In this document: positions 8,211 through 47,735 of the stretch, piece by piece | Position numbering within the stretch: the first letter of the stretch is position 1 | Layout: every line of letters starts with the position of its first letter | Source: an uncultured Nitrospiraceae bacterium | GTDB lineage: Bacteria > Nitrospirota > Nitrospiria > Nitrospirales > Nitrospiraceae | Direction of reading: 5' to 3' | Length of the DNA: 64,000 nucleotides | NCBI GenBank assembly: GCA_963706325.1 | Contig: CAVPLT010000004.1 | Coordinates: forward strand, 256,001 to 320,000 | Notes under the pieces: generated by a model | The model's input: the letters and a program-made list of their open reading frames with translations, nothing else | The model's database searches: none | Told to the model about the DNA's origin: nothing | Translations under genes and position numbers: made by a program

Positions 8211-8678
8211 ATGGCACTTGATACGGAATTCGGCAAGACGATGCTCCAACTGATTACGTCACGGTATGACGACCGGCATTGGAGAAAGAAAATCGAGAAG
8301 ACGCTCAGCCTTCCACACAGCGGGGTAGGAGATTCGCGCCAGCAACAGGTGTTCATGTATCTGAAGCTGGAACTCAAGGCGTACAAGTCCAGACGCGCCG
8401 ATCCTGACTCTTGGATTTTGGGGGGCTATGCCACCAAGGAAGTGATCGATCGGGCGAAGTTTCAGCCGCATCTGGTCGGAGAAGGCATTTCGTCCGAGGA
8501 TGTGGCATTTCTGGGCGTCGATCCTGGTGCAGAAATTGATGAAGCTTGGTGGGACGAAATGTTGGTGGCTTGGTTCGGGGCTCCCGAGGAGGATGAAGAG
8601 CAAAAGCAAGAATCCGAGGAGACAGCTGACGAACAACCTTTCACCGCCGACGCCGGAAACAATCCCTCCCGCATCTGA
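8211..8678 (+). CDS. Hypothetical protein with acidic C-terminal tail
   Basis: 155-aa ORF with GAGG SD-like signal; no family recognised. Confidence 0.75.
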   Translation: MALDTEFGKTMLQLITSRYDDRHWRKKIEKTLSLPHSGVGDSRQQQVFMYLKLELKAYKSRRADPDSWILGGYATKEVIDRAKFQPHLVGEGISSEDVAFLGVDPGAEIDEAWWDEMLVAWFGAPEEDEEQKQESEETADEQPFTADAGNNPSRI

Positions 8679-36927: not shown

Positions 36928-38070
36928 TCAATTGTCCGGAGACGTCTTTGCGATCGCAAGGGCGGGCAATGAAGATTTGCACTCCCGTACGACGCGGACA
37001 AACAGCTCCGTCAGTTTCGGATCGAAATGCGTATCGGCTTGCAGGGAAACCCGTAGGATTGCGTCATCAATGGACAGAGGAAGGTGCCCAGGCATATCGA
37101 CCGTAAGGTTATCGAACGCCTGCGCAATAGCGACGATACGCGCCAACAACGGAATGCCGGCGCCCTGCAGGCCGTGAGGATTGCCCACACCGTCGAACCG
37201 TTCGTGATGATACGCCACGATTTGTCCCACTTCGGCTTGGAACCCTAATGGTAACAGCATGCGCGCGCCGGCCTCGGAATGCTCCTTGCCGTATGCGCTG
37301 TTTCCGATGCAATCGTCTTCATCCGGCGTATATTTATAGTTGGACAGGCTGATTTTTCCGATGTCGTGGAGAAAGGCCCCGAGTGCCAGGGCTTTCTGTT
37401 CTGGGAGGGGGAGATTCATCTGGTTGGCGAGAAGCGATCCGTAAAAACTGACGCGACTGCAGTGATTCAAGAGCTGGCGGTCCTTGGCTTCCAGCAGGTC
37501 AGATAGCAAGGGGATCAAAGCGGTCACCTCGCCCGCACCAGTGACAGCATCGGAAGAAGACTTGCCGATGGCAAAATAGTTCGATTGCACGTCCTTCCAG
37601 GCTTGGGTCACTTCTTGTTCCGTGCCCCATAACGCGGTCGAGGTTTTCAGGAACGATCGTAAGTAGTCCAGACGCTGTTTTTTTTCCAGCGTTTGGTTGA
37701 TCAGCGTGATGAGCTCGGTGACATTGAAAGGCTTGAGCAAGTACCCGGCTGCACCGTGCCGGATTCCTTCCATGGCGGACTTCAAGCTTCCATAACCGGT
37801 GATGATGATGACTTCAATATCTGCGTAGTCTTGCTTGATATCCTGGAGCAGGTCGATGCCCTGACGATCGGGCAATTTTTGGTCGAGCGTGATGAGGTCG
37901 ATGTGCCGTTCTTTCAGGACTTGTAGTGCAGACTTGGCGTTGTCGGCCGAATGGATTGTGAAGAAGGGTCGGAGGATAACTTTGAGCGCATCGCGCGGTC
38001 CGGTCTCATCATCGACGACTAGCACCGATGGTTTCTCAACTACGTAATCGACTGGTGCGTCAATCTCCAT
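36928..38070 (-). CDS. Response regulator with degenerate HD-GYP output domain
   Basis: REC (VVDDE, TLDQ, ITG, KPF); LHDIGK, HHERFDGVGNP, ARIVAIAQAFD. Confidence 0.9.
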   Translation of the reverse strand: MEIDAPVDYVVEKPSVLVVDDETGPRDALKVILRPFFTIHSADNAKSALQVLKERHIDLITLDQKLPDRQGIDLLQDIKQDYADIEVIIITGYGSLKSAMEGIRHGAAGYLLKPFNVTELITLINQTLEKKQRLDYLRSFLKTSTALWGTEQEVTQAWKDVQSNYFAIGKSSSDAVTGAGEVTALIPLLSDLLEAKDRQLLNHCSRVSFYGSLLANQMNLPLPEQKALALGAFLHDIGKISLSNYKYTPDEDDCIGNSAYGKEHSEAGARMLLPLGFQAEVGQIVAYHHERFDGVGNPHGLQGAGIPLLARIVAIAQAFDNLTVDMPGHLPLSIDDAILRVSLQADTHFDPKLTELFVRVVRECKSSLPALAIAKTSPDN

Positions 38071-38160
38071 CCTGAGCGCTCCTCAAGTGCAGTGCAGCTT
38101 CAAGGAAGATGAAACGAAAGACCCATACCGTTCATTTTCCTACCCATGACGCCAATATAT

Positions 38161-38176
38161 AGCAGGTCCGAATCCA
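38161..38176 (-). promoter_or_regulatory. Candidate sigma54 (-24/-12) promoter upstream of the HD-GYP gene
   Basis: Minus strand TGGATTCGGACCTGCT has correct GG-N10-GC spacing. Confidence 0.45.
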
Positions 38177-38225
38177 TCGGGCTACAAGATAATTGTCGTG
38201 AGCCTGTGGAACGGGTCGCCGACTG

Positions 38226-38250
38226 TGTCTCAAGTGGAGGAAATGAGACA
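38226..38250. promoter_or_regulatory. Inverted repeat TGTCTCA-N11-TGAGACA, candidate enhancer (UAS)
   Basis: Perfect 7-bp inverted repeat 50-75 bp upstream of the candidate sigma54 site. Confidence 0.45.
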
Positions 38251-38279
38251 TCGTCCGGACGTTATTGTGTCAACCGGTG

Positions 38280-39692
38280 TCATTCCTGAGTCACCGGAGG
38301 ATCGATCGCCGTGCCGTTGTCCGGCCTGCTGATACCCAAGGTGTCCATGCGATATTTCAGCATACGGCGGCTGATTCCCAACATGGTGGCTGCATGTGTT
38401 TGTACGTAGGTTGTACGTTTAAGGGCGTCCAGAATGATTTCGCGTTCGAATTCCATGACGGCTTTTTCGAGGGACAGCCGCCCTGCCAGCGTATCGTCTC
38501 GGAGCGAGGTTGATCGCGTATCGGCCCGCAGAATCGTCGGCAGATGCTCGGGCAGGATCACATTGGAGCCCTTGGACCAGATGAACGCTTGTTCGATGAT
38601 GTTCTCCATCTCGCGCACGTTTCCCGGCCACGGATAGTGCGAAACCAGTTCCAGCGATTCCTTGGTGAATTCCTGCGAGGGCCGCTTCTCTTCTTCGATA
38701 CGTTTGGCAAGAAAGTGTTTGGCGAGCAGTGAGATGTCCTCCCCGCGTTCGCGCAACGGCGGCAGATACAGCGCGATGACATTGATTCGGTAATAGAGGT
38801 CCTCTCGGAACAGGCCCTTGCGGACCAGTTCATCGAGATTTTTGTTGGTGGCAGCCACGATGCGCACATCGACTTTAATGGACTGCACGCCTCCGACTCG
38901 GGTGAACTCGCGTTCTTGTAGCACACGCAAGAGCTTCGCCTGGGTCGCCGGGCTGAGATCGCCGATCTCATCCAGGAAGAGGGTGCCCGTATGCGCCAGT
39001 TCGAATTGCCCTACGCGCCTCGCCGTCGCGTCGGTGAAAGAGCCTTTCTCGTGTCCGAAGAGTTCGCTTTCGATCAGGGTTTCCGGCAGTGCCGCGCAAT
39101 TCAGCGCTATGAAGGGACGCTCGCGCCGCGCGCTGTTGTAATGGATGGCCTTTGCTACGAGTTCCTTCCCGGTGCCACTCTCCCCCGTCACCAACACGGT
39201 GGTGCGGCTATCGGCGACCTGTTCGATCTTCGCGTAGATTTCTTGCATTGACGGGCTTTTGCCAATGAGATTGTGGAAAGCGTATCGCTGCACCACCTGG
39301 GCGCGTAATTGACGGACTTCCTGTTCCAATTCATGTTTGCCCAGCGCGCGCTCAATCACGATTTGTAACTCTTCCACATCGAAGGGCTTGGACAGATAGT
39401 CGGCTGCGCCAATTTTCATGGCGTCCACGGCGGTTTTAACAGCTTTCGTTCCAGTCAGCATGATCACAGGGACGGCACGATTTTCCGTGCGCATAGCGTG
39501 GAGAACGGCCAGGCCATCGGTTCCCGGCAGGATCACATCCAGTAGGACTAAATCAGGGGACTCGCGCTTGAAGAGCTGGAGGCCCTCGGTGGCCTCCGCC
39601 GCTTCCAGAATATCGTAGGTCGGTTCCAGAACCGCCTTTACTGAAGCGCGAACACGCGGCTCGTCGTCGACTAGTAACACCCGTTTTTTCAT
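38280..39692 (-). CDS. Sigma54-dependent response regulator (NtrC/AtoC family)
   Basis: REC, GESGTGKE, ESELFGHEKGSFTDA, LFLDEIGD, WPGNVRE, C-terminal HTH. Confidence 0.96.
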   Translation of the reverse strand: MKKRVLLVDDEPRVRASVKAVLEPTYDILEAAEATEGLQLFKRESPDLVLLDVILPGTDGLAVLHAMRTENRAVPVIMLTGTKAVKTAVDAMKIGAADYLSKPFDVEELQIVIERALGKHELEQEVRQLRAQVVQRYAFHNLIGKSPSMQEIYAKIEQVADSRTTVLVTGESGTGKELVAKAIHYNSARRERPFIALNCAALPETLIESELFGHEKGSFTDATARRVGQFELAHTGTLFLDEIGDLSPATQAKLLRVLQEREFTRVGGVQSIKVDVRIVAATNKNLDELVRKGLFREDLYYRINVIALYLPPLRERGEDISLLAKHFLAKRIEEEKRPSQEFTKESLELVSHYPWPGNVREMENIIEQAFIWSKGSNVILPEHLPTILRADTRSTSLRDDTLAGRLSLEKAVMEFEREIILDALKRTTYVQTHAATMLGISRRMLKYRMDTLGISRPDNGTAIDPPVTQE

Positions 39693-39693
39693 G

Positions 39694-40977
39694 TTACTCC
39701 CGTGCTGCTGACGCTGCAGCCCGCATACCCGATGCCGGAAGATTGACGGAGAACGTGGAGCCTACGCCCACTCGACTCTCGACCAGAAGTTGGCCACCAT
39801 GATCATGGACGATCTGGTGCGCACTGGTTAGTCCTAGGCCCGATCCGTCGCCGGCGCTGTTGGAGTGCTTTGTGGTAAAAAACGGATCGAAGATGCGCTC
39901 CAGATGTTCCGTCGCAATGCCGCATCCTTCATCCTCGACCTGCAATTGCACCCATGCGGTCCCCCCACTGTAGGGTAATAATCGGGTTTGTACGGAAATT
40001 ATGCCCTGGCCATTCGGCATTGCATCCAGCGCATTAAAGAAGAGGTTGAGGAGAACCTGTTTGATTTGTTGACGATCCATTGTGACGAGAGGCAGGTCAG
40101 GCGCCAAGGTGGTGCGGACGCGCGTGCCCCGCTGCGATGCGCGGGCCGATACGAAACAGAGACATGAGGTGACGAGTTCGTTGAGATCTACGTCGCTCAG
40201 TTGCGGAGCCATGTAGCTGGCGTAGTCAAGAATTTCGTGCAATAAACGCTCGATGCGATGGACATCCTCGATGGCTAGCCGGCTGAACTCCTTGATGAAC
40301 ACGGGGTCGTGCTGGCGCTGCGGGGCCAACTGGATAAAAGTCTTAATCGATGTAAGAGGATTGCGGATTTCATGGGCAAATCCGCCCGCCATCATCTCCA
40401 ACGAACGCAGCCGGTCCGTTCGTCTCATTAGCATCGAAGATCGCCGAAAATCGTCCTGTGCCAGGTGATTATCTAAGGCATTGGAGGCGATGTGTCCTAT
40501 GGTTTCGGTCACGGCAGTATTATCTTTGCCTATGTGAGTATCTGTGGTTTGCGGGCCGAAGGCACACACTCCGAGGAGGCCCCGGTGTGACCTGAGCGGA
40601 AGACAGAGGGCCGCCTGCAATGCCGACAAGGTCGCGTCAAGCCGAGAATCCCGCTCTTTTTGGTATTGAAGCATGTGCACGCTGTTCGAAAGGGACGTGA
40701 CAAGGGGGTGGTCATCGCGCAATATTGAGGGCAATGAATGCGCAGTAGGGTGCCCTGAAGTCGATAGGAGAAAGAACTGCTGAGCATCGATCCCTCGCAC
40801 CCAGATCGCCGCTTCAGGCATGTCAAGTTGTTCTGAGAGAGTTGCGAGAATGCAATGGCCAAGGTGCGGTAGATCCTTCTCGCGTCCCGCAGCCTCGGCA
40901 AAGGCACCGATCATTCTGACGAGGTCAAGTGAGTCTGTAAGGATAGAAGCGTGCGGGGTATGTTTGTCGGGTGTCAT
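39694..40977 (-). CDS. Cytoplasmic GAF-like sensor histidine kinase
   Basis: FAHEIRNPL, NLFFNALDA, DEGCGI, FDPFFTTK, GSGLGL; no TM. Confidence 0.93.
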   Translation of the reverse strand: MTPDKHTPHASILTDSLDLVRMIGAFAEAAGREKDLPHLGHCILATLSEQLDMPEAAIWVRGIDAQQFFLLSTSGHPTAHSLPSILRDDHPLVTSLSNSVHMLQYQKERDSRLDATLSALQAALCLPLRSHRGLLGVCAFGPQTTDTHIGKDNTAVTETIGHIASNALDNHLAQDDFRRSSMLMRRTDRLRSLEMMAGGFAHEIRNPLTSIKTFIQLAPQRQHDPVFIKEFSRLAIEDVHRIERLLHEILDYASYMAPQLSDVDLNELVTSCLCFVSARASQRGTRVRTTLAPDLPLVTMDRQQIKQVLLNLFFNALDAMPNGQGIISVQTRLLPYSGGTAWVQLQVEDEGCGIATEHLERIFDPFFTTKHSNSAGDGSGLGLTSAHQIVHDHGGQLLVESRVGVGSTFSVNLPASGMRAAASAARE

Positions 40978-41083
40978 TGTCCTGTGCAGGGAAAATCACT
41001 CCAGGCACCATGCTGCTCGTGATGCCAATCAACTCGCTGCCTGTACGGTGCTGGTGAAGGAAGTATATAGACACGGTTTTCTT

Positions 41084-44000
41084 TCAGCCAGCGGAATCAG
41101 GTTTTTCGACGACAGCGATGAGAATATGTCCGGAGAGCATACGCAGAAGTCTCGCTGGAGAAGGTGTGATTTGTGAAAGGCGCGCGTTGAGGGTGTCCTC
41201 TTCGAAGGTGTGCAATTGACCGATGCGAAGGGCTTTGCAGCACTGCGCCATGTGATTCAAGACCAGGCGGGTTTCCCCCGTGAACGCATCGCGACCCTCT
41301 TGTTGTACCGCAGACCGATATAAAAGACCCACATCTGCGGAGGGGGCGAAGGTGCTCACGACAAGTTTTCCACCCGGCCTGAGTACACGGAAAAGTTCAC
41401 GTAGTGCATGGAGGGGCGAAGGCGCAAAGCTGAGTGAGAGGTCCGCTACGATACGATCGAACGAATGGTCAGCGAAGGGAAGGGCTTCCGCAGATCGGCC
41501 GAGCACCCAACTCTGAGCTAAAGGGGTGGGGCCGGAAATCCGCCCCGAGAACAGTCCGTCCACCTGCTTCAGCGCGTCCTTTGTCGCAGACTGTGCGGCA
41601 TGAAGTGCCAAGGTGGAGAAGTCTACTCCGACATAGCGGAGTGGTCTCGCGTGACGCCACGTTTGAGCACGAAGGCGATAGGAAAGATTGAGCAAAAGTA
41701 GCCTTGCGAAGGAATGCATGCCACATCCGATGTCGAGAAGAGCTAGGCCTCCGTCCAGAGGTTGTGCGAGTTGGTAGAGCTGCTCGATATGTTGCCAATA
41801 GGTTGGTAGTTCTTCCAGGGCTTGAGTGAGATGTGTTTGCACGCTCCAAAGGCGATCCCTGGCTTCGGCGTTGACGAAATACTTGGCTCGGAGCCGGTCG
41901 CGTTCGAAGCGTGAACGAATGGCGATAGGCCTTGAGATGGAGAGGGGGATTGTTGCGGACGAAGGCGCGAAGTTGTTGGACGGCTGGCAGAGCTGCCGGA
42001 GACGTTGCCAACTCACCTCCAAGCCCTTCGGCGCGATGTCGCCGGCAGTCAAGATGGAATATGGTAGGCTCGCGCGGCGACCTTTTAATCCGAGTAGACC
42101 CATCGCATCGTTCAAGTGAATCGGTGAAGTTCCTGGTACCGTTGGTGCAGAAGCTTCGGGGTTGGCCGTGATAATCACGACCTCGGTTTCACAGTGCGTG
42201 AGATCACTACGTAGTGCGGTTACGTCCGTGTACTGTGCGGCAATGGCGTCAGTCAAGAAACGATCGATGTCTAGAGGAATTCCCAACAGATTGCCTATGC
42301 CGAATCGGGTTCCTGCTAGATGTTCTTGGATCAGATTACGTTCATGTAGTGCATCGAGACAATTCCGAAGGTCCAGAGTCGGATTGATCAGAATGAGCCG
42401 ACGAATCAATCGATGCCAGTCTTGACGTCGTAGCGCAATTCGCCCAAGGATGTCCGGCGCTACCATAGTCAGTGACGCCCCAGGCCACATTTTCTGCGTG
42501 AAGGCTAGGACGGTGTCGAGGTCGTCTTCCAGGGAGGTGAAGGTTGTCTGGGCTGGATCACCGTCGCTGAGGCCCAGATGGCAACTGTGGTCATAACGCA
42601 GAACTCGCAGCCCACCTTCTGCAAGAAGGTAGGCAAAGGCTACGTATGCCTGCTGAGTCATGCCATATCCCGAGCATAGGAGTACGATGGGAAGCAAAGT
42701 GGTCTGCGCTTGCCGGGGCGCGTCATGACACAGCGCGATAATGTGGCCCTCACGATTCCGCAATGCATGTGAGACCGTGATCACGGAACTATTGGCCGTC
42801 GGTTCGGCGAGATCGTGCGAAGGGCCGATCGCCGGCATAGTGATGCTTCGCAGTCTGTATTCCTGAGCAGTTGACAAATTCTCAAAACGCACTCCTAGCT
42901 GAAAACGTCCCTTCGATGCGGTCTCCGGGCGAGATGTTGTATTGATGCGCAGGATGCGCGTCCATATAACACGCGCGGTCCATAGGTCATCCGCCTCTTT
43001 TGAAGCCGGAGCGCCGATGGGTTGCGCGATTGGACCAACAAGAATTAATTGGATGATCTGATGCTCCGCCAGGGAGTCCAGGTGCCCGGACAATTCGAGG
43101 CAGGCTCCGTCTCGGCTGAGGTCCAAGATCAGGCCGGGCGGCCGATCCGACCGATTCTCCTCGATCGCAAGTCGAATGGGAATTGTAATCGCCAGACGAA
43201 CCGTTTCACGCCGGTCTTTCGGCATGTCACTCGATATAGGTACATTCTCATGCCCGTTCTTTACCGGTGAAAAGGGCGAAAGAATTAAGGCTTCGAAGCT
43301 CACCGAGGTGGAACCTTCTTGGAGTCCATCCAGAAGTGACTGCAGCACGTTTCGGTCACCGTCACTAGTGAGCGCAAATGATATGACGATGTCCTTGGTG
43401 AACTGCAATGTGGATTCGTCGGTTGTAGGAGGACGCTCATGCGCCATACCCTGAAGTTCCAGAAAGCTGACCGGTGTTTTGATGACCACATACGCCGGTT
43501 GCAAATGAACTGAGGGCGACTGGTCACGGAGCGTTAGTAGCGCTCCTCTTGTGCTCATGTTTCGAAGGACGCAGCGAAGTGTACTATTACCGATGGTCAG
43601 TTCAACGGGGAGCGATAGCAGGTGGCGCGGAAACCGACGGCGCTCACGAGTTGATACGGAAGGATTTGACGTATCAGCGGGGTACTGGCTGGTTCCAACT
43701 ATCGAAGCTTGTGTTCCAAGTTTGTCGAGACTGTCGGATGAGGTCAGCGTATCGCCGGCGGCCGGAATTCTAACCTTGATCGTCACTCCTTTGTCCGGTG
43801 TGCTCTCAATCTCGATGGCGCCCTTATGTGCATGGACGATCTGGTGAGCCCGCAGAAAATCCTCGGGCGATACGTCTTTGGCAGAGACGACGGATGGAAA
43901 ATTACTGTCGCTTGCGACGACTTGGATGGTGAAGCTGGCATAGGTGCGGGTGGTGTTCGGATCGGCGGCGATGACATCATGTGGCGTCCTTCTGCTATGA

Positions 44001-45283
44001 AGGACGAGTGGTTCGGTGTACAGAGTGAGCCAAGAGGATGTAGGCATTCCAGAAATGCAACGTTGAGCATAGTCGAGAAGAATTCGTGCGAGATCTTCGA
44101 CTGCCTCACGCGATCCTGTGATGACAGGGAGATCCTTAGCGAAGCGTGCCGTTAGCTGGGGGCCCTTGCCTTGTGATTCGCGTAGGGCAGACTGCATCAC
44201 CGCCTGGAGGATTTCATTGAGGATGAGAGGTTCATCTGACAACGGTTGTGCTTGAATAATCTGTACCAGCTGTTGGGTTAGTTGGTTGGCTTGCGAAGCC
44301 TGGGCGATCATGGTTTCTACATGCTGCTGGATTTTACTCTGCTGGATTGTGCTCAGCAGTCGTTGTGAGTCTTGGAGTAGAGTGGTCAGAGGCTGCTGGA
44401 GTTGACGTGATACCCTGGCGGCTTCCTGTGAGAGAGCGAGCTGGCAGTTGGTTTCTTGGAGTCTGGATTCCAACTGTGTGAGGCGGTCCTGCTGGGATTT
44501 TTCTTGTGAAAGATCACGTACCAACCCCACCGTGCCGATATATCGATGGGCATGGTCGAGCAATCCTTTGGCCGTAACCTCTACGGATACGACAGAAGGT
44601 GTCACATTTGGGGTCGATTTTCGATGCAGCGTGAGTTTAAACCTGCGCACGGAGCGGCTTCCGGCCCGGCGTTCGTTCACGCGAAAGCGTCCGGTAGCCT
44701 CCTCTTGCGGTGGAATAAGGATTGAGTAATGCTGGCCGGCAAGCTCCTCTGGTGTGTAGCCGAGCATTGCCGTCACGATGCCGCTGACATAGATAAAGCG
44801 GCCATCCTGGTCGAGCTCATATAAAAGGTCGTTCACGGTATCAATAAATCGAAGGTGCCGCTGAAAAGTGTGGTCGAGTTTCGCTTGCAGCTCGCGTTTC
44901 TCAACGGCCTCCTGGGCAGAGAAGAGCAACTCTGTGACAAAACCAGGTGAATTCTTAAACAGGAGGAAGTCTGCGCCGTTCTGCAAGGCTTGGATTGCCG
45001 TCTGTGAATCGCTCTGGTTTGTTTGAAGAAGGATTGCCGCATAGGGGGCATTGCGGCGGATACGAGCGATGATGTCGAGGCCGCTGTTGGGCTGCAAGTC
45101 CTGATCGATCAGGATGATCTGCCAGTCGGCTCGCTGACTAAAGGTGAGAGCGTCTTCTGAGGAGAAGCCGGCTTCAATGCGGCAATTTGCGAAGAAACCT
45201 CTTAAGCTGGAGGTCACCAGTTTGAGTTCGTCCGGATGTTCACTGATGAGCAGAATGTTTAATGACGATTCAGGACTCGGCAT
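41084..45283 (-). CDS. 1399-aa multidomain protein: REC-PAS-degenerate HK-PilZ-PilZ-LuxD-like alpha/beta hydrolase-SAM methyltransferase
   Basis: ILIDQDL (REC); ELDQDGRFIYVS...LGYTPEEL (PAS); RRRFPR/NMSTRG and RRETVR/DLSRDG (PilZ); SGYG...RVLRYDHSCHLGLSDG (LuxD-like); LLDIGCG, LPFADHSFD, VLRPGG (MTase). Confidence 0.85.
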   Translation of the reverse strand: MPSPESSLNILLISEHPDELKLVTSSLRGFFANCRIEAGFSSEDALTFSQRADWQIILIDQDLQPNSGLDIIARIRRNAPYAAILLQTNQSDSQTAIQALQNGADFLLFKNSPGFVTELLFSAQEAVEKRELQAKLDHTFQRHLRFIDTVNDLLYELDQDGRFIYVSGIVTAMLGYTPEELAGQHYSILIPPQEEATGRFRVNERRAGSRSVRRFKLTLHRKSTPNVTPSVVSVEVTAKGLLDHAHRYIGTVGLVRDLSQEKSQQDRLTQLESRLQETNCQLALSQEAARVSRQLQQPLTTLLQDSQRLLSTIQQSKIQQHVETMIAQASQANQLTQQLVQIIQAQPLSDEPLILNEILQAVMQSALRESQGKGPQLTARFAKDLPVITGSREAVEDLARILLDYAQRCISGMPTSSWLTLYTEPLVLHSRRTPHDVIAADPNTTRTYASFTIQVVASDSNFPSVVSAKDVSPEDFLRAHQIVHAHKGAIEIESTPDKGVTIKVRIPAAGDTLTSSDSLDKLGTQASIVGTSQYPADTSNPSVSTRERRRFPRHLLSLPVELTIGNSTLRCVLRNMSTRGALLTLRDQSPSVHLQPAYVVIKTPVSFLELQGMAHERPPTTDESTLQFTKDIVISFALTSDGDRNVLQSLLDGLQEGSTSVSFEALILSPFSPVKNGHENVPISSDMPKDRRETVRLAITIPIRLAIEENRSDRPPGLILDLSRDGACLELSGHLDSLAEHQIIQLILVGPIAQPIGAPASKEADDLWTARVIWTRILRINTTSRPETASKGRFQLGVRFENLSTAQEYRLRSITMPAIGPSHDLAEPTANSSVITVSHALRNREGHIIALCHDAPRQAQTTLLPIVLLCSGYGMTQQAYVAFAYLLAEGGLRVLRYDHSCHLGLSDGDPAQTTFTSLEDDLDTVLAFTQKMWPGASLTMVAPDILGRIALRRQDWHRLIRRLILINPTLDLRNCLDALHERNLIQEHLAGTRFGIGNLLGIPLDIDRFLTDAIAAQYTDVTALRSDLTHCETEVVIITANPEASAPTVPGTSPIHLNDAMGLLGLKGRRASLPYSILTAGDIAPKGLEVSWQRLRQLCQPSNNFAPSSATIPLSISRPIAIRSRFERDRLRAKYFVNAEARDRLWSVQTHLTQALEELPTYWQHIEQLYQLAQPLDGGLALLDIGCGMHSFARLLLLNLSYRLRAQTWRHARPLRYVGVDFSTLALHAAQSATKDALKQVDGLFSGRISGPTPLAQSWVLGRSAEALPFADHSFDRIVADLSLSFAPSPLHALRELFRVLRPGGKLVVSTFAPSADVGLLYRSAVQQEGRDAFTGETRLVLNHMAQCCKALRIGQLHTFEEDTLNARLSQITPSPARLLRMLSGHILIAVVEKPDSAG

Positions 45284-45665
45284 GAAAGATCTCAGGTCCT
45301 CACACAGGGGATATGATCGTGCGGTCCAGATGCTATTCGTGGCATGCCCAGCGTTTTGCCGTTCATCATTGACAGTTCGCCCTATTAGGGGGGACTGTAT
45401 GCTTAAAAACGGCTATTGGCGACATAAGTGGTTCAATATCATACAACCCCCCGAGATGCCCAGTCCGCTGCATGCGGGGACAATGTTACTTCGGTAGGGG
45501 AATAGCTTGTAATGGATTGAAGAAGGATCAGCGAGGGAGCTAAGCGCGCTTGGCTGAAAAATAGGTCAGCAGCCAGCTCTGAGCGATGAAGTCGCAAAGA
45601 CCAATATACGGGGGCATTGGCCCACTGCAAACTCTAGTCTGCCCCGGGCGCCGAGCAAGGCCTAT

Positions 45666-46667
45666 TTAACGGGCAGCGGTTGTGCTGGCAGGTTGTTGAC
45701 AGACGCCGGGAGTCATGTAGAGAAGATAGTTCCCCATTCCATAATGAATATTAGGGTTCTGCAAGGGGTGATGGTGAACCATGATCATTTCATAGTCGTC
45801 TTGTTTGGTGACCGCGAATCCTAAGTCATTTTTATACACTTGGTAAGGTCTAAAGTCGCGAAAGGTACCATCGGCATCCACGTCGGGAACGGTTCTGAGG
45901 AGGGTCTGGTTGGTAGTCTTATTCTCAAGCGCGACCATGAGGAGTTCATCGTGGCCGTGAGGGTAGGCGAATTTTACACATCCGTCCATGTTGAACTTCA
46001 GCGGCGCCGAAAGCACTGACACGCCCGGTTTAATTTCGATTCCCTCGTCGGTTTGATCCCCGCCTCGTTGACCGAACTTGCTGTAGCAGACGATATTCAC
46101 ACCCACTTGGTAGACATCCATCTCCTGTACTTTCGCGCCCCTCGGTGCCACATACATCGTGAACCGTGCCATTACGTCCTTCGTGGGTGGGGCCTTGTGA
46201 TAAAACGCGACCACGGACATCAGATTTTGACCTTTGCCCAGTTTCACGCCATATCCGTCCGGAAAGCGGGCTTCTGTCATCTCCAACCCCGCCCCGGCGA
46301 AAAACAACGGTTCCCCATCGCATGACACGCTGGGTTTGTCGTTATTCAACATGAGAATGTGATGGAGGTAGTTCTTCGGCAGCGGCTGGCCGTCCTTCGT
46401 GAATACTTCGGATTTATATCCGATCATGAACGTGTCGTCCGGCAACTGAAACACTTTTTTCGGCATGCTGGAGGCGAGATCGCCATCGTGCCCGGTCGGC
46501 AGATCAACCGGGCCGAACGTGAGGGTAACGGTGTGATCGTCGATGGTAATTTTGGTGTCGCCCGTACTGGGCATCGTAGGAATTGCGTGATGATCATGGC
46601 CGCCATCGGCATAGACCGCACTCGTGAGCCCTAGCAGGATCAGCATTGTCAGTAGCGCACGAATCAT
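45666..46667 (-). CDS. Secreted copper type II (PHM/DBH-like) monooxygenase-like protein
   Basis: Signal peptide, HDHH, YLHHIL, RFPDGYGVKL, FAYPHGH, GMGNYLLY; GAGGAGG SD. Confidence 0.65.
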   Translation of the reverse strand: MIRALLTMLILLGLTSAVYADGGHDHHAIPTMPSTGDTKITIDDHTVTLTFGPVDLPTGHDGDLASSMPKKVFQLPDDTFMIGYKSEVFTKDGQPLPKNYLHHILMLNNDKPSVSCDGEPLFFAGAGLEMTEARFPDGYGVKLGKGQNLMSVVAFYHKAPPTKDVMARFTMYVAPRGAKVQEMDVYQVGVNIVCYSKFGQRGGDQTDEGIEIKPGVSVLSAPLKFNMDGCVKFAYPHGHDELLMVALENKTTNQTLLRTVPDVDADGTFRDFRPYQVYKNDLGFAVTKQDDYEMIMVHHHPLQNPNIHYGMGNYLLYMTPGVCQQPASTTAAR

Positions 46668-46742: not shown

Positions 46743-47735
46743 CTAAGGAGTTGGAGGCGGTGTGAGTCTTTTCCACAGGTAACTGCCACCGTGCTGCCGG
46801 GGCGGGATATGGTCCTTCGTGCCGACTCGAACATACCACCATATTCCCTTGGCTTGTGTGCCGTCTTCAGAAAGAACGATTTCAAATGCGCCTTCGCGGT
46901 CATTGCCCGTTTGTTTCCACGTGCCCTGCCATCGGCGGTCGTTATAGTTGGTGGTGGAGAATTGCCCCCCTTGCCAGGTATAGGGACCATTGCCTTGCGC
47001 ATTCAGAGTCGCAACGTATTTTTTATTGTCCTCGATCTCAGTGACTTCCCATTCTCCACTTAAATCCGCGCTAGCTTGAATGCCCGCTTGGCTGTCGGCG
47101 GCTCGATGAAGGAGCGTGGTCTTGTCGGCCGAGGCGATCCCCGAACGGGTGTCATGATGCCGGGTTGACTCATGCCAGGAGACGAGAATCCAGCGTCCAT
47201 CCCGTCGTTCCAGCACGCCGGTTTCGCGGAGTGGGAGTACCATCGGTTGATCGTCGGAATTGACGTGACGGATATAGTCCAATTCCATCGCAAACCAGGT
47301 AATTTCGCCGTTGCGCCAGAGTTGCAGATGCGTGATTGGGATATCCAGCTTGACGACGGAGTCGAATTCACTGCGCATGTCAGCCGCAAGGGCAGGCCAG
47401 CCCTCATATTTGCGTCCATCGAGCGTATAGCCGAGGGCGTCGGCATCGTGCGACATGTACTTCGACATCGTGGCAAGATCCCGTTCTGCATTGGCTCGCA
47501 CGAGCATACGCAACGTCGTTTCCGCGTCGAGAGGTTCGTCGGCAGACGCCGGAGAACCAAGCAGCATGCTGATCAGCACAACAAAAACAAGCTGGGTCCA
47601 GTGCGGGAGGAGGTCGGATTGATGTCTACGCAGCCGATTGTTCATAGGCAGAAAAAATCGTCTCACTGAAATAAGCGCACACTCCAAAACTACCTGGTGC
47701 TCGGAGGTGCTGTCAATGTCTATTTGCCTGATCAA
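46743..47735 (-). CDS. Secreted SnoaL/NTF2-like domain protein with extra C-terminal beta domain (start probably 47645)
   Basis: Signal peptide, LRETGVLERRDGRWILVSWHES. Confidence 0.75.
   Translation of the reverse strand: MIRQIDIDSTSEHQVVLECALISVRRFFLPMNNRLRRHQSDLLPHWTQLVFVVLISMLLGSPASADEPLDAETTLRMLVRANAERDLATMSKYMSHDADALGYTLDGRKYEGWPALAADMRSEFDSVVKLDIPITHLQLWRNGEITWFAMELDYIRHVNSDDQPMVLPLRETGVLERRDGRWILVSWHESTRHHDTRSGIASADKTTLLHRAADSQAGIQASADLSGEWEVTEIEDNKKYVATLNAQGNGPYTWQGGQFSTTNYNDRRWQGTWKQTGNDREGAFEIVLSEDGTQAKGIWWYVRVGTKDHIPPRQHGGSYLWKRLTPPPTP

Follow-up and report, generated by a model that had tools for sequence, protein, structure and literature searches.

What part, if any, does a four-gene signalling locus play in making and sensing a lipid signal? 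The question is raised by 64,000 nucleotides of DNA (the window) from an uncultured Nitrospiraceae bacterium (assembly GCA_963706325.1, contig CAVPLT010000004.1, positions 256,001 to 320,000), whose minus strand encodes a large fusion protein, a soluble histidine kinase, a sigma54 activator and a protein that joins a receiver (REC) domain to an HD-GYP-type domain. The original prediction, made from the sequence, saw here a lipid-signal circuit with the fusion as its enzyme; this is partly supported, in that the kind of system was recognised correctly but the role was given to the wrong gene. With slightly more confidence than doubt, we regard the window locus as a derived copy of a signal-synthase/receptor module, made up of the outputs, a pseudo-enzyme and a second, soluble kinase, with the intact enzyme-receptor pair located on another contig (C5) of the same genome.

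The coordinates confirm that the four genes (Table 1) are co-oriented, with intergenic gaps of 106, 1 and 209 bp in the order fusion, kinase, activator and REC-HD-GYP protein. As predicted, none of the products contains a membrane-like segment, i.e., the mean hydropathy is at most 1.6 in every run of 19 residues. Pfam assigns REC, PAS, a weak HisKA, two PilZ domains, Acyl_transf_2 (LuxD) and Methyltransf_11 to the fusion; GAF, HisKA and HATPase to the kinase; REC, Sigma54_activat and HTH_8 to the activator; and REC and HD_5 to the fourth protein. The locus thus has three REC domains and one intact kinase, again as had been proposed, since the kinase module of the fusion is dead (Gln in place of the phosphorylated His in 30 of 30 orthologs).

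The thioesterase of the fusion is not an intact enzyme. The positions of the catalytic triad were set by alignment to LuxD (1THT, Ser114 and His241; E 8e-19), in which, according to the available part of PMC6279958, the acylated residue Ser114 belongs to the triad. All 33 aligned window-type rows have Asp at the site of the catalytic Ser and lack the His; the 25 intact-type rows have Ser in 24, Asp in 25 and His in 25 cases (three rows missed by the anchoring pattern and one frameshifted gene are left out of these counts). Among 150 listed representatives, 125 were near full length, and 85 of these retain Ser-Asp-His. The modelled window domain has the LuxD fold (pLDDT 86), with 1THT as the top match in both Foldseek and VIA (Z 24.8, rmsd 3.7, 282 residues aligned). 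The original prediction overlooked both this loss and the intact enzyme-receptor pair on C5.

Other parts of the fusion have been kept. RxxxR and [DN]xSxxG are the c-di-GMP (cyclic di-GMP) receptor motifs of PilZ domains, and both PilZ domains of the fusion carry them; c-di-GMP binding is therefore predicted from the motifs. The REC domain has also retained its phospho-acceptor residue. The dead fusion is likely to act as a c-di-GMP-binding, possibly phosphorylatable regulator or as a ligand-binding scaffold.

Table 1. Features of the locus in the window (SAM, S-adenosylmethionine; 7TM, seven-transmembrane; HTH, helix-turn-helix)
Feature	Positions	Strand	Basis or remarks
Fusion, 1399 aa: REC-PAS-pseudokinase-PilZ-PilZ-pseudo-thioesterase (LuxD fold)-SAM methyltransferase-like	41084..45283	-	Pfam, fold model, alignments
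REC of fusion	44909..45262	-	Acceptor Asp, Thr and Lys present; acidic pocket atypical (S/N-E)
PAS of fusion	44498..44851	-	Pfam
Dead HisKA-HATPase module of fusion	43760..44434	-	His replaced by Gln; N and G boxes gone
PilZ 1 of fusion	43304..43645	-	RxxxR and NxSxxG; 30/30 orthologs (both Arg and Gly)
PilZ 2 of fusion	42839..43216	-	RxxxR and [DN]xSxxG; both Arg and Gly in 30/30, Ser in 26/30 orthologs
LuxD-fold alpha/beta hydrolase without triad	41969..42793	-	Asp944 at Ser site; acid and His segments replaced
Class I SAM methyltransferase-like domain	41099..41926	-	DxGxG motif I present; third Gly replaced by His1190; 11/34 family-conserved columns gone
Soluble GAF-HisKA-HATPase kinase, 427 aa	39694..40977	-	Paralog of C5 7TM kinase minus membrane sensor
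NtrC-type sigma54 activator, 470 aa: REC-AAA+-Fis HTH, GSFTDA loop	38280..39692	-	
REC and non-canonical HD-GYP, 380 aa	36928..38070	-	HD and most His present; GNP for GYP, no KPG, no RxxK, Gln317 at PmGH Asp305
Conserved non-coding block with TGnTATGAT-like element, 5' of fusion	45430..45500	-	Likely promoter/operator, by conservation
ATATACT (-10-like) element 5' of kinase	41061..41068	-	Conservation
CCTGCTATA (extended -10-like) element 5' of REC-HD-GYP	38153..38166	-	Conservation

The intact paralog on C5 comprises PilZ, PilZ, LuxD-like and methyltransferase domains with a full Ser-Asp-His triad in alignment to 1THT, and is followed, 33 bp on, by a kinase with two HisKA_7TM domains, a GAF domain and a kinase core. 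The pair adjoins Pup-proteasome genes, has no response regulator beside it and was seen in all 20 further loci fetched from the genus. The enzyme (L001:8388-11303 in the extracted locus) scores below the NCBIfam LuxD cut-off (87 vs 420). The named records 80-87% identical to it are from Nitrospira, including Ca. N. defluvii (L103), which makes the host a Nitrospira. The two kinases share 74% of the region that carries the phosphorylated His (DHp) and 18 of the 21 residues after this His, compared with at most 10 of 21 in the same phosphotransfer helix for the other 29 open reading frames of the genome with an H box. Because this helix has an established role in the choice of partners by histidine kinases, and is nearly identical in both, we predict a shared set of receivers for the two kinases.

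Upstream of the C5 pair lies a complete Pup-proteasome run of arc, dop, prcB, prcA and pafA (L001:1-6649 in the extracted locus). Two GTCA-N6-TGAC palindromes, 18 bp apart, stand 5' of the intact enzyme (L001:8160-8191 and 8305-8332; G000:C5). This tandem pair is unique among the 92 such sites of the genome, is followed by a promoter-like TTGACA-N16-TAGAAT site and is conserved in 18 of 21 C5-type loci of the genus. The sites match the FleQ consensus as quoted in the available part of PMC6120874 and are putative binding sites. The two FadL-like genes of the genome (G000:C7:270731-272218 and G000:C1:937471-939090) each adjoin a histidine kinase gene and are possibly further lipid-sensing units.

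Cytoplasmic sensing, proposed earlier, does not appear to be the original design either: the ancestral kinase was a membrane 7TM receptor, and the GAF domain is the least conserved part of the window kinase (43% identity). The activator has the REC-AAA+-Fis architecture of the NtrC type, and its loop, GSFTDA in 29 and GAFTDA in 2 of 31 orthologs, is a variant of GAFTGA, the consensus loop of such proteins.

The fourth protein was rightly called a degenerate HD-GYP. Its HD motif and N-terminal Glu and His ligands are present (E194, H203, H235, D236 and H288 in 44-45 of 45 rows). Compared with PmGH (4MCW), it has Asn for Tyr285 and Met and His for Arg314 and Lys317 (MPGH for RPYK), the KPG motif is absent, and Gln replaces Asp305, which we take to be a metal ligand. 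The degeneracy is old, as it is common to orthologs in distant Nitrospirales. Given these losses, the protein probably serves as an adaptor, or as an enzyme whose specificity has changed, and not as a phosphodiesterase of c-di-GMP (for the roles of the GYP Tyr, KPG and RxxK motifs, see section 6 of 10.1101/2021.11.05.467447, as far as available). Its REC domain is 97% identical across the genus. A canonical REC-HD-GYP protein with GYP, KPG and RVYK motifs is encoded elsewhere in the genome (L002; G000:C4:657053-658102), in which, by pattern, only two open reading frames combine GGDEF with the diguanylate cyclase metal motif.

Does the arrangement recur? In the genus, the four-gene order is kept in 31 of 34 loci, the other three being cut by contig ends. 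In another family and in other surroundings, an enzyme, a 7TM kinase, the activator (68% identical) and the REC-HD-GYP protein (45-52%) again stand together, and the window's own slot, between the SnoaL-like and U333 genes on one side and RecN on the other, holds an intact enzyme, a two-7TM kinase, the activator and the REC-HD-GYP protein in two further loci (L122 and L203). The original prediction is thus right that the genes belong together, and the other family and the shared slot are stronger evidence than the order within the genus. The state of the enzyme also follows that of the kinase. An intact triad is accompanied by a 7TM kinase in 80 of the 80 loci with the kinase in view (eight further loci have none in view), and the Ser-to-Asp change by a kinase without a 7TM domain in 47 of 47, one of which (L208) retains a remnant. 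Four dead enzymes stand beside a 7TM kinase, three of them with a FabH or diiron oxidase gene inserted, and nine dead-enzyme loci have no kinase in view. An apparent enzyme-receptor fusion in L207 was set aside because it reads as a frameshift at the junction.

The didomain of thioesterase and methyltransferase occurs in 179 of 244 genomes of the family, mostly as a single copy. In the large genera, the members examined have the dead version, and some lack the SAM motif as well. In two complete genomes (G400 and G456), the dead fusion is present and neither the intact enzyme nor the 7TM kinase was found; the C5 pair is thus not a requirement for a window-type locus. It should be noted that the phylogenetic tree was built by a quick method and rooted at its midpoint, and that a long branch leads to the window type. 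L169 falls with the window type in this tree, and the order of events rests on synteny, not on the tree.

In the intact module on C5, the LuxD-like domain would act on acyl-ACP (ACP, acyl carrier protein), and the fatty acid thus set free would be methylated by the fused SAM domain, giving an ester able to diffuse. The PilZ domains would make synthesis subject to c-di-GMP, and the product would be sensed by the HisKA_7TM-GAF kinase. Thioesterase action followed by carboxyl methylation, yielding a fatty-acid methyl ester sensed by the adjoining membrane kinase, is the simplest reading. Both kinases would then phosphorylate the same two receivers in the window, the sigma54 activator and the REC-HD-GYP protein, and the window locus would form the output end of the circuit together with a second, cytoplasmic input. 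The sequences themselves establish the domain content, the residue losses, the paralogy, the synteny and the selection, whereas the product, the ligand, the phosphotransfer and the role of the pseudo-enzyme are inferred from them. The lipid-signal logic of thioesterase, methyltransferase, kinase and REC-HD-GYP protein that had been proposed does underlie these genes, but synthesis and sensing are not sited at the window.

Outside the genus, the pairing of the enzyme with a 7TM kinase recurs across Nitrospirales. The didomain was also detected in 12 of the 301 Verrucomicrobiota genomes searched. In 11 of them, the next gene is clearly that of a HisKA_7TM-GAF kinase, and in nine an outer-membrane channel of the FadL family is encoded at a distance of two genes; the record name of one member points to an Omnitrophica genome. 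Accessory genes at such loci encode PilZ-FabH, PilZ-CADD/PqqC-like (diiron) oxidase, a P450 and START-like fusions, and at some loci PilZ-FabH or the PilZ-diiron oxidase is inserted between enzyme and kinase. Helix 6 of the receptor has the motif xx[NTSA][FY][PFL][LI]W in 79 loci without an accessory enzyme in both phyla, SLDYLPI in all four oxidase loci and xNFLLV in both FabH loci. The module is real, ancient and seemingly undescribed. A wider reading is possible and is offered tentatively: it may represent a new family of lipid quorum sensing in Nitrospirota and Verrucomicrobiota, with one member in Omnitrophota, that combines a PilZ-gated synthase (LuxD-like thioesterase and methyltransferase), a GPCR (G protein-coupled receptor)-like HisKA_7TM receptor kinase and swappable FabH or diiron-oxidase chemistry, to which the receptor pockets are matched. 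On this view, loss of the membrane receptor from the kinase would have gone along, in most Nitrospiraceae, with conversion of the synthase into a catalytically dead sensor that binds c-di-GMP inside the cell, and a cell-to-cell circuit would have become an internal one.

At one locus (L224:6733-10713), a fusion without the thioesterase (REC-PAS-PilZ-methyltransferase) is followed by PilZ-FabH and a two-7TM kinase, an arrangement which suggests that FabH can replace the thioesterase. In 11 Verrucomicrobiota loci (L191:12075-13517 and relatives), the gene after that of the 7TM kinase encodes a conserved GAF-PAS-REC-like protein of 450-495 aa that belongs to no clear family.

It is unlikely, in our judgement, that the module has no part in cell-to-cell signalling, the enzyme instead remodelling or detoxifying lipids or making a non-signal metabolite under c-di-GMP control while the 7TM kinase senses the state of the membrane or an unrelated cue. 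The literature gives this some room, since HisKA_7TM was named in two of the papers that the search returned and the available portion of one of them gives no ligand. The relatives of the methyltransferase do not point to a methyl acceptor, and the modelled 7TM sensor, a seven-helix GPCR-like bundle, resembles GPCRs, AdipoR2 and ceramidase merely as a helical arrangement (Z 13-16, near-tied and not discriminating). The search with this model returned no LuxN-, CqsS- or PhcS-like structure, which excludes none of them. However, the adjacency of enzyme and kinase persists across two phyla, the receptor motif changes along with the accessory enzyme, FadL lies beside the module, and one complete genome (G384) keeps the two-7TM kinase where no intact enzyme was found, as expected of a listener.

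Closer to the original idea, and in our estimate rather improbable, the window fusion might still be an enzyme, with its methyltransferase using an acid supplied in trans or with Asp944 supporting a new chemistry, and with an intracellular product read by the soluble kinase. The methyltransferase does keep DxGxG, the motif II Asp and 23 of 34 family-conserved columns, and the elbow Asp is invariant. Nonetheless, such an Asp nucleophile would have no His base, the third Gly of motif I is a His, and the family-invariant Tyr318, Tyr455, Lys482 and Gly359 columns are lost. Moreover, three genera (g14, g31 and g34) have lost the SAM motif while retaining the gene, and the GAF domain that would read the product is poorly conserved.

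Selection was estimated from the ratio of nonsynonymous to synonymous substitution rates (dN/dS) over 8-9 close within-genus pairs (nine for the thioesterase and methyltransferase). In the fusion, dN/dS is 0.08 for REC, 0.10 for PAS, 0.14 and 0.43 for PilZ 1 and PilZ 2, 0.19 for the thioesterase and 0.15 for the methyltransferase, the last value being one that a working methyltransferase would also explain. It is 0.35 for the kinase GAF domain, 0.09 for the kinase core, 0.03 for the activator, 0.02 for the REC domain of the HD-GYP protein and 0.10 for RecN. All domains, the dead ones included, are under purifying selection in the genus.

Several findings weigh against the derivation of the window locus from a signalling module, or against parts of it. 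Flanking housekeeping genes are equally syntenic within the genus, which makes the order there a weak argument, and the 47 Ser-to-Asp loci are probably the result of a single event in one clade, i.e., kin that are not independent. A search of 93 genomes of one genus, with five candidates scored per genome, left 43 without a match to the fusion; the fusion is deleted from the slot in all five such genomes examined, of which four keep the kinase, and two other genomes keep the fusion with the kinase gone. As each is lost without the other in some genomes, the fusion and the soluble kinase are not obligate partners. In five of five outgroup-lineage genomes, no ortholog of the sigma54 activator was found despite sigma54 boxes before the enzyme. 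The Verrucomicrobial receivers match the HD-GYP REC domain in helix 1, yet it is the best hit in only 3 of 10. Finally, the methyltransferase has no characterised close relative. LahSB, a carboxyl methyltransferase according to the available part of PMC11285071, is the second-best solved relative (E 2e-9, the aligned stretch covering the N-terminal W-x-x-Y motif) among N-, O- and C-methyltransferases. The losses of fusion, kinase or both from the slot, with the two regulators always retained, might even suggest that the first two genes are slowly decaying relics and that only the regulators matter, but this is very improbable given a window-type gene in 35 of 36 genomes of the genus, dN/dS well under 1 in every domain, including the kinase core, and invariant PilZ motifs.

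With respect to control regions, a sigma54 box precedes the enzyme gene in 38 of 53 outgroup loci. In marine-type Nitrospirales (L129-L171), the intact enzyme is preceded by a conserved TGGCAY-N5-TTGCT sigma54 box, upstream GTCA-N6-C(G/A/T)AC repeats and an AT-rich element. Autoinduction through the sigma54 activator of the locus was considered and set aside as unsupported, since the lineages with sigma54 boxes gave no ortholog of it in the five genomes covered. In the loci of the genus, no conserved sigma54 box was found 5' of the fusion, the kinase, the REC-HD-GYP gene or the C5 enzyme. Scans for sigma70 sites (5 vs 5.4 expected) and terminators (6 vs 6.6 expected) were at chance level, and the promoter statements in Table 1 are therefore drawn solely from conservation. 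Rfam gave no match in the window or in the C5 locus L001. A secreted-looking protein of 333 aa (U333; 45666-46667; 85-97% conserved, no Pfam match) and a SnoaL-like protein (46743-47735) precede the window locus throughout Nitrospiraceae.

Nitrite oxidation and comammox in biofilms and flocs depend on Nitrospira. If the proposed circuit is real, a lipid-ester signal system in this genus, shared with Verrucomicrobiota, would represent a new synthase family, and the widespread HisKA_7TM sensor would gain a candidate class of ligands. The window offers a well-sampled case of a synthase that became a retained pseudo-enzyme together with the loss of a receptor domain. In practical terms, the obvious gene at this locus (41084-45283) is the wrong one to assay, as a false negative is the probable outcome of expressing it and profiling lipids; the gene to choose is the C5 paralog.

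How, then, does the module compare with known systems? A literature search of titles and the beginnings of abstracts, with few subscription papers, returned no description of this enzyme-receptor pair. The earlier analogies to the Rpf and Phc systems hold for the kinase/REC-HD-GYP layout and for the methyltransferase-kinase logic; RpfF and RpfC are not homologs. In Ralstonia Phc quorum sensing, likewise, a histidine kinase gene has as its neighbour the gene of a SAM methyltransferase whose proposed product is a fatty-acid methyl ester (PhcS and PhcB, respectively; available part of PMC11298618). Here, however, the methyltransferase shares its chain with PilZ domains and a LuxD-like thioesterase (not a working one in the window copy), the receptor is HisKA_7TM-GAF, and output runs through a sigma54 activator and a REC-HD-GYP protein; among 91 relatives, most of them bearing generic names, none is named PhcB. 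The DSF system of Xanthomonas (RpfF, RpfC and RpfG) also unites acyl-ACP thioesterase logic, a kinase and a REC-HD-GYP protein in one module, the last encoded with the kinase in both cases. Nonetheless, the module is not a member of the DSF system: Pfam and fold searches give a LuxD alpha/beta-hydrolase fold rather than the crotonase fold of RpfF, there is no hybrid REC-HPt kinase but GAF-HisKA-HATPase (HisKA_7TM-GAF-HisKA-HATPase in the paralog), and the HD-GYP domain lacks the GYP Tyr, KPG and RxxK. PrsK and PrsR of PEP-CTERM systems are similar in that a membrane-GAF-kinase is followed by a sigma54 activator, and TIGR02916 and TIGR02915 were matched, although with scores below the curated cut-offs (107 and 146 vs 300; 432 vs 503); the loci read contain no exosortase or PEP-CTERM gene. 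LuxD of Vibrio harveyi, a myristoyl-ACP thioesterase (1THT), differs in having no fused methyltransferase, and no lux genes occur in the loci read; nonetheless, it is the best match in both sequence and fold, and the triad that the window copy has lost is present in the C5 paralog.

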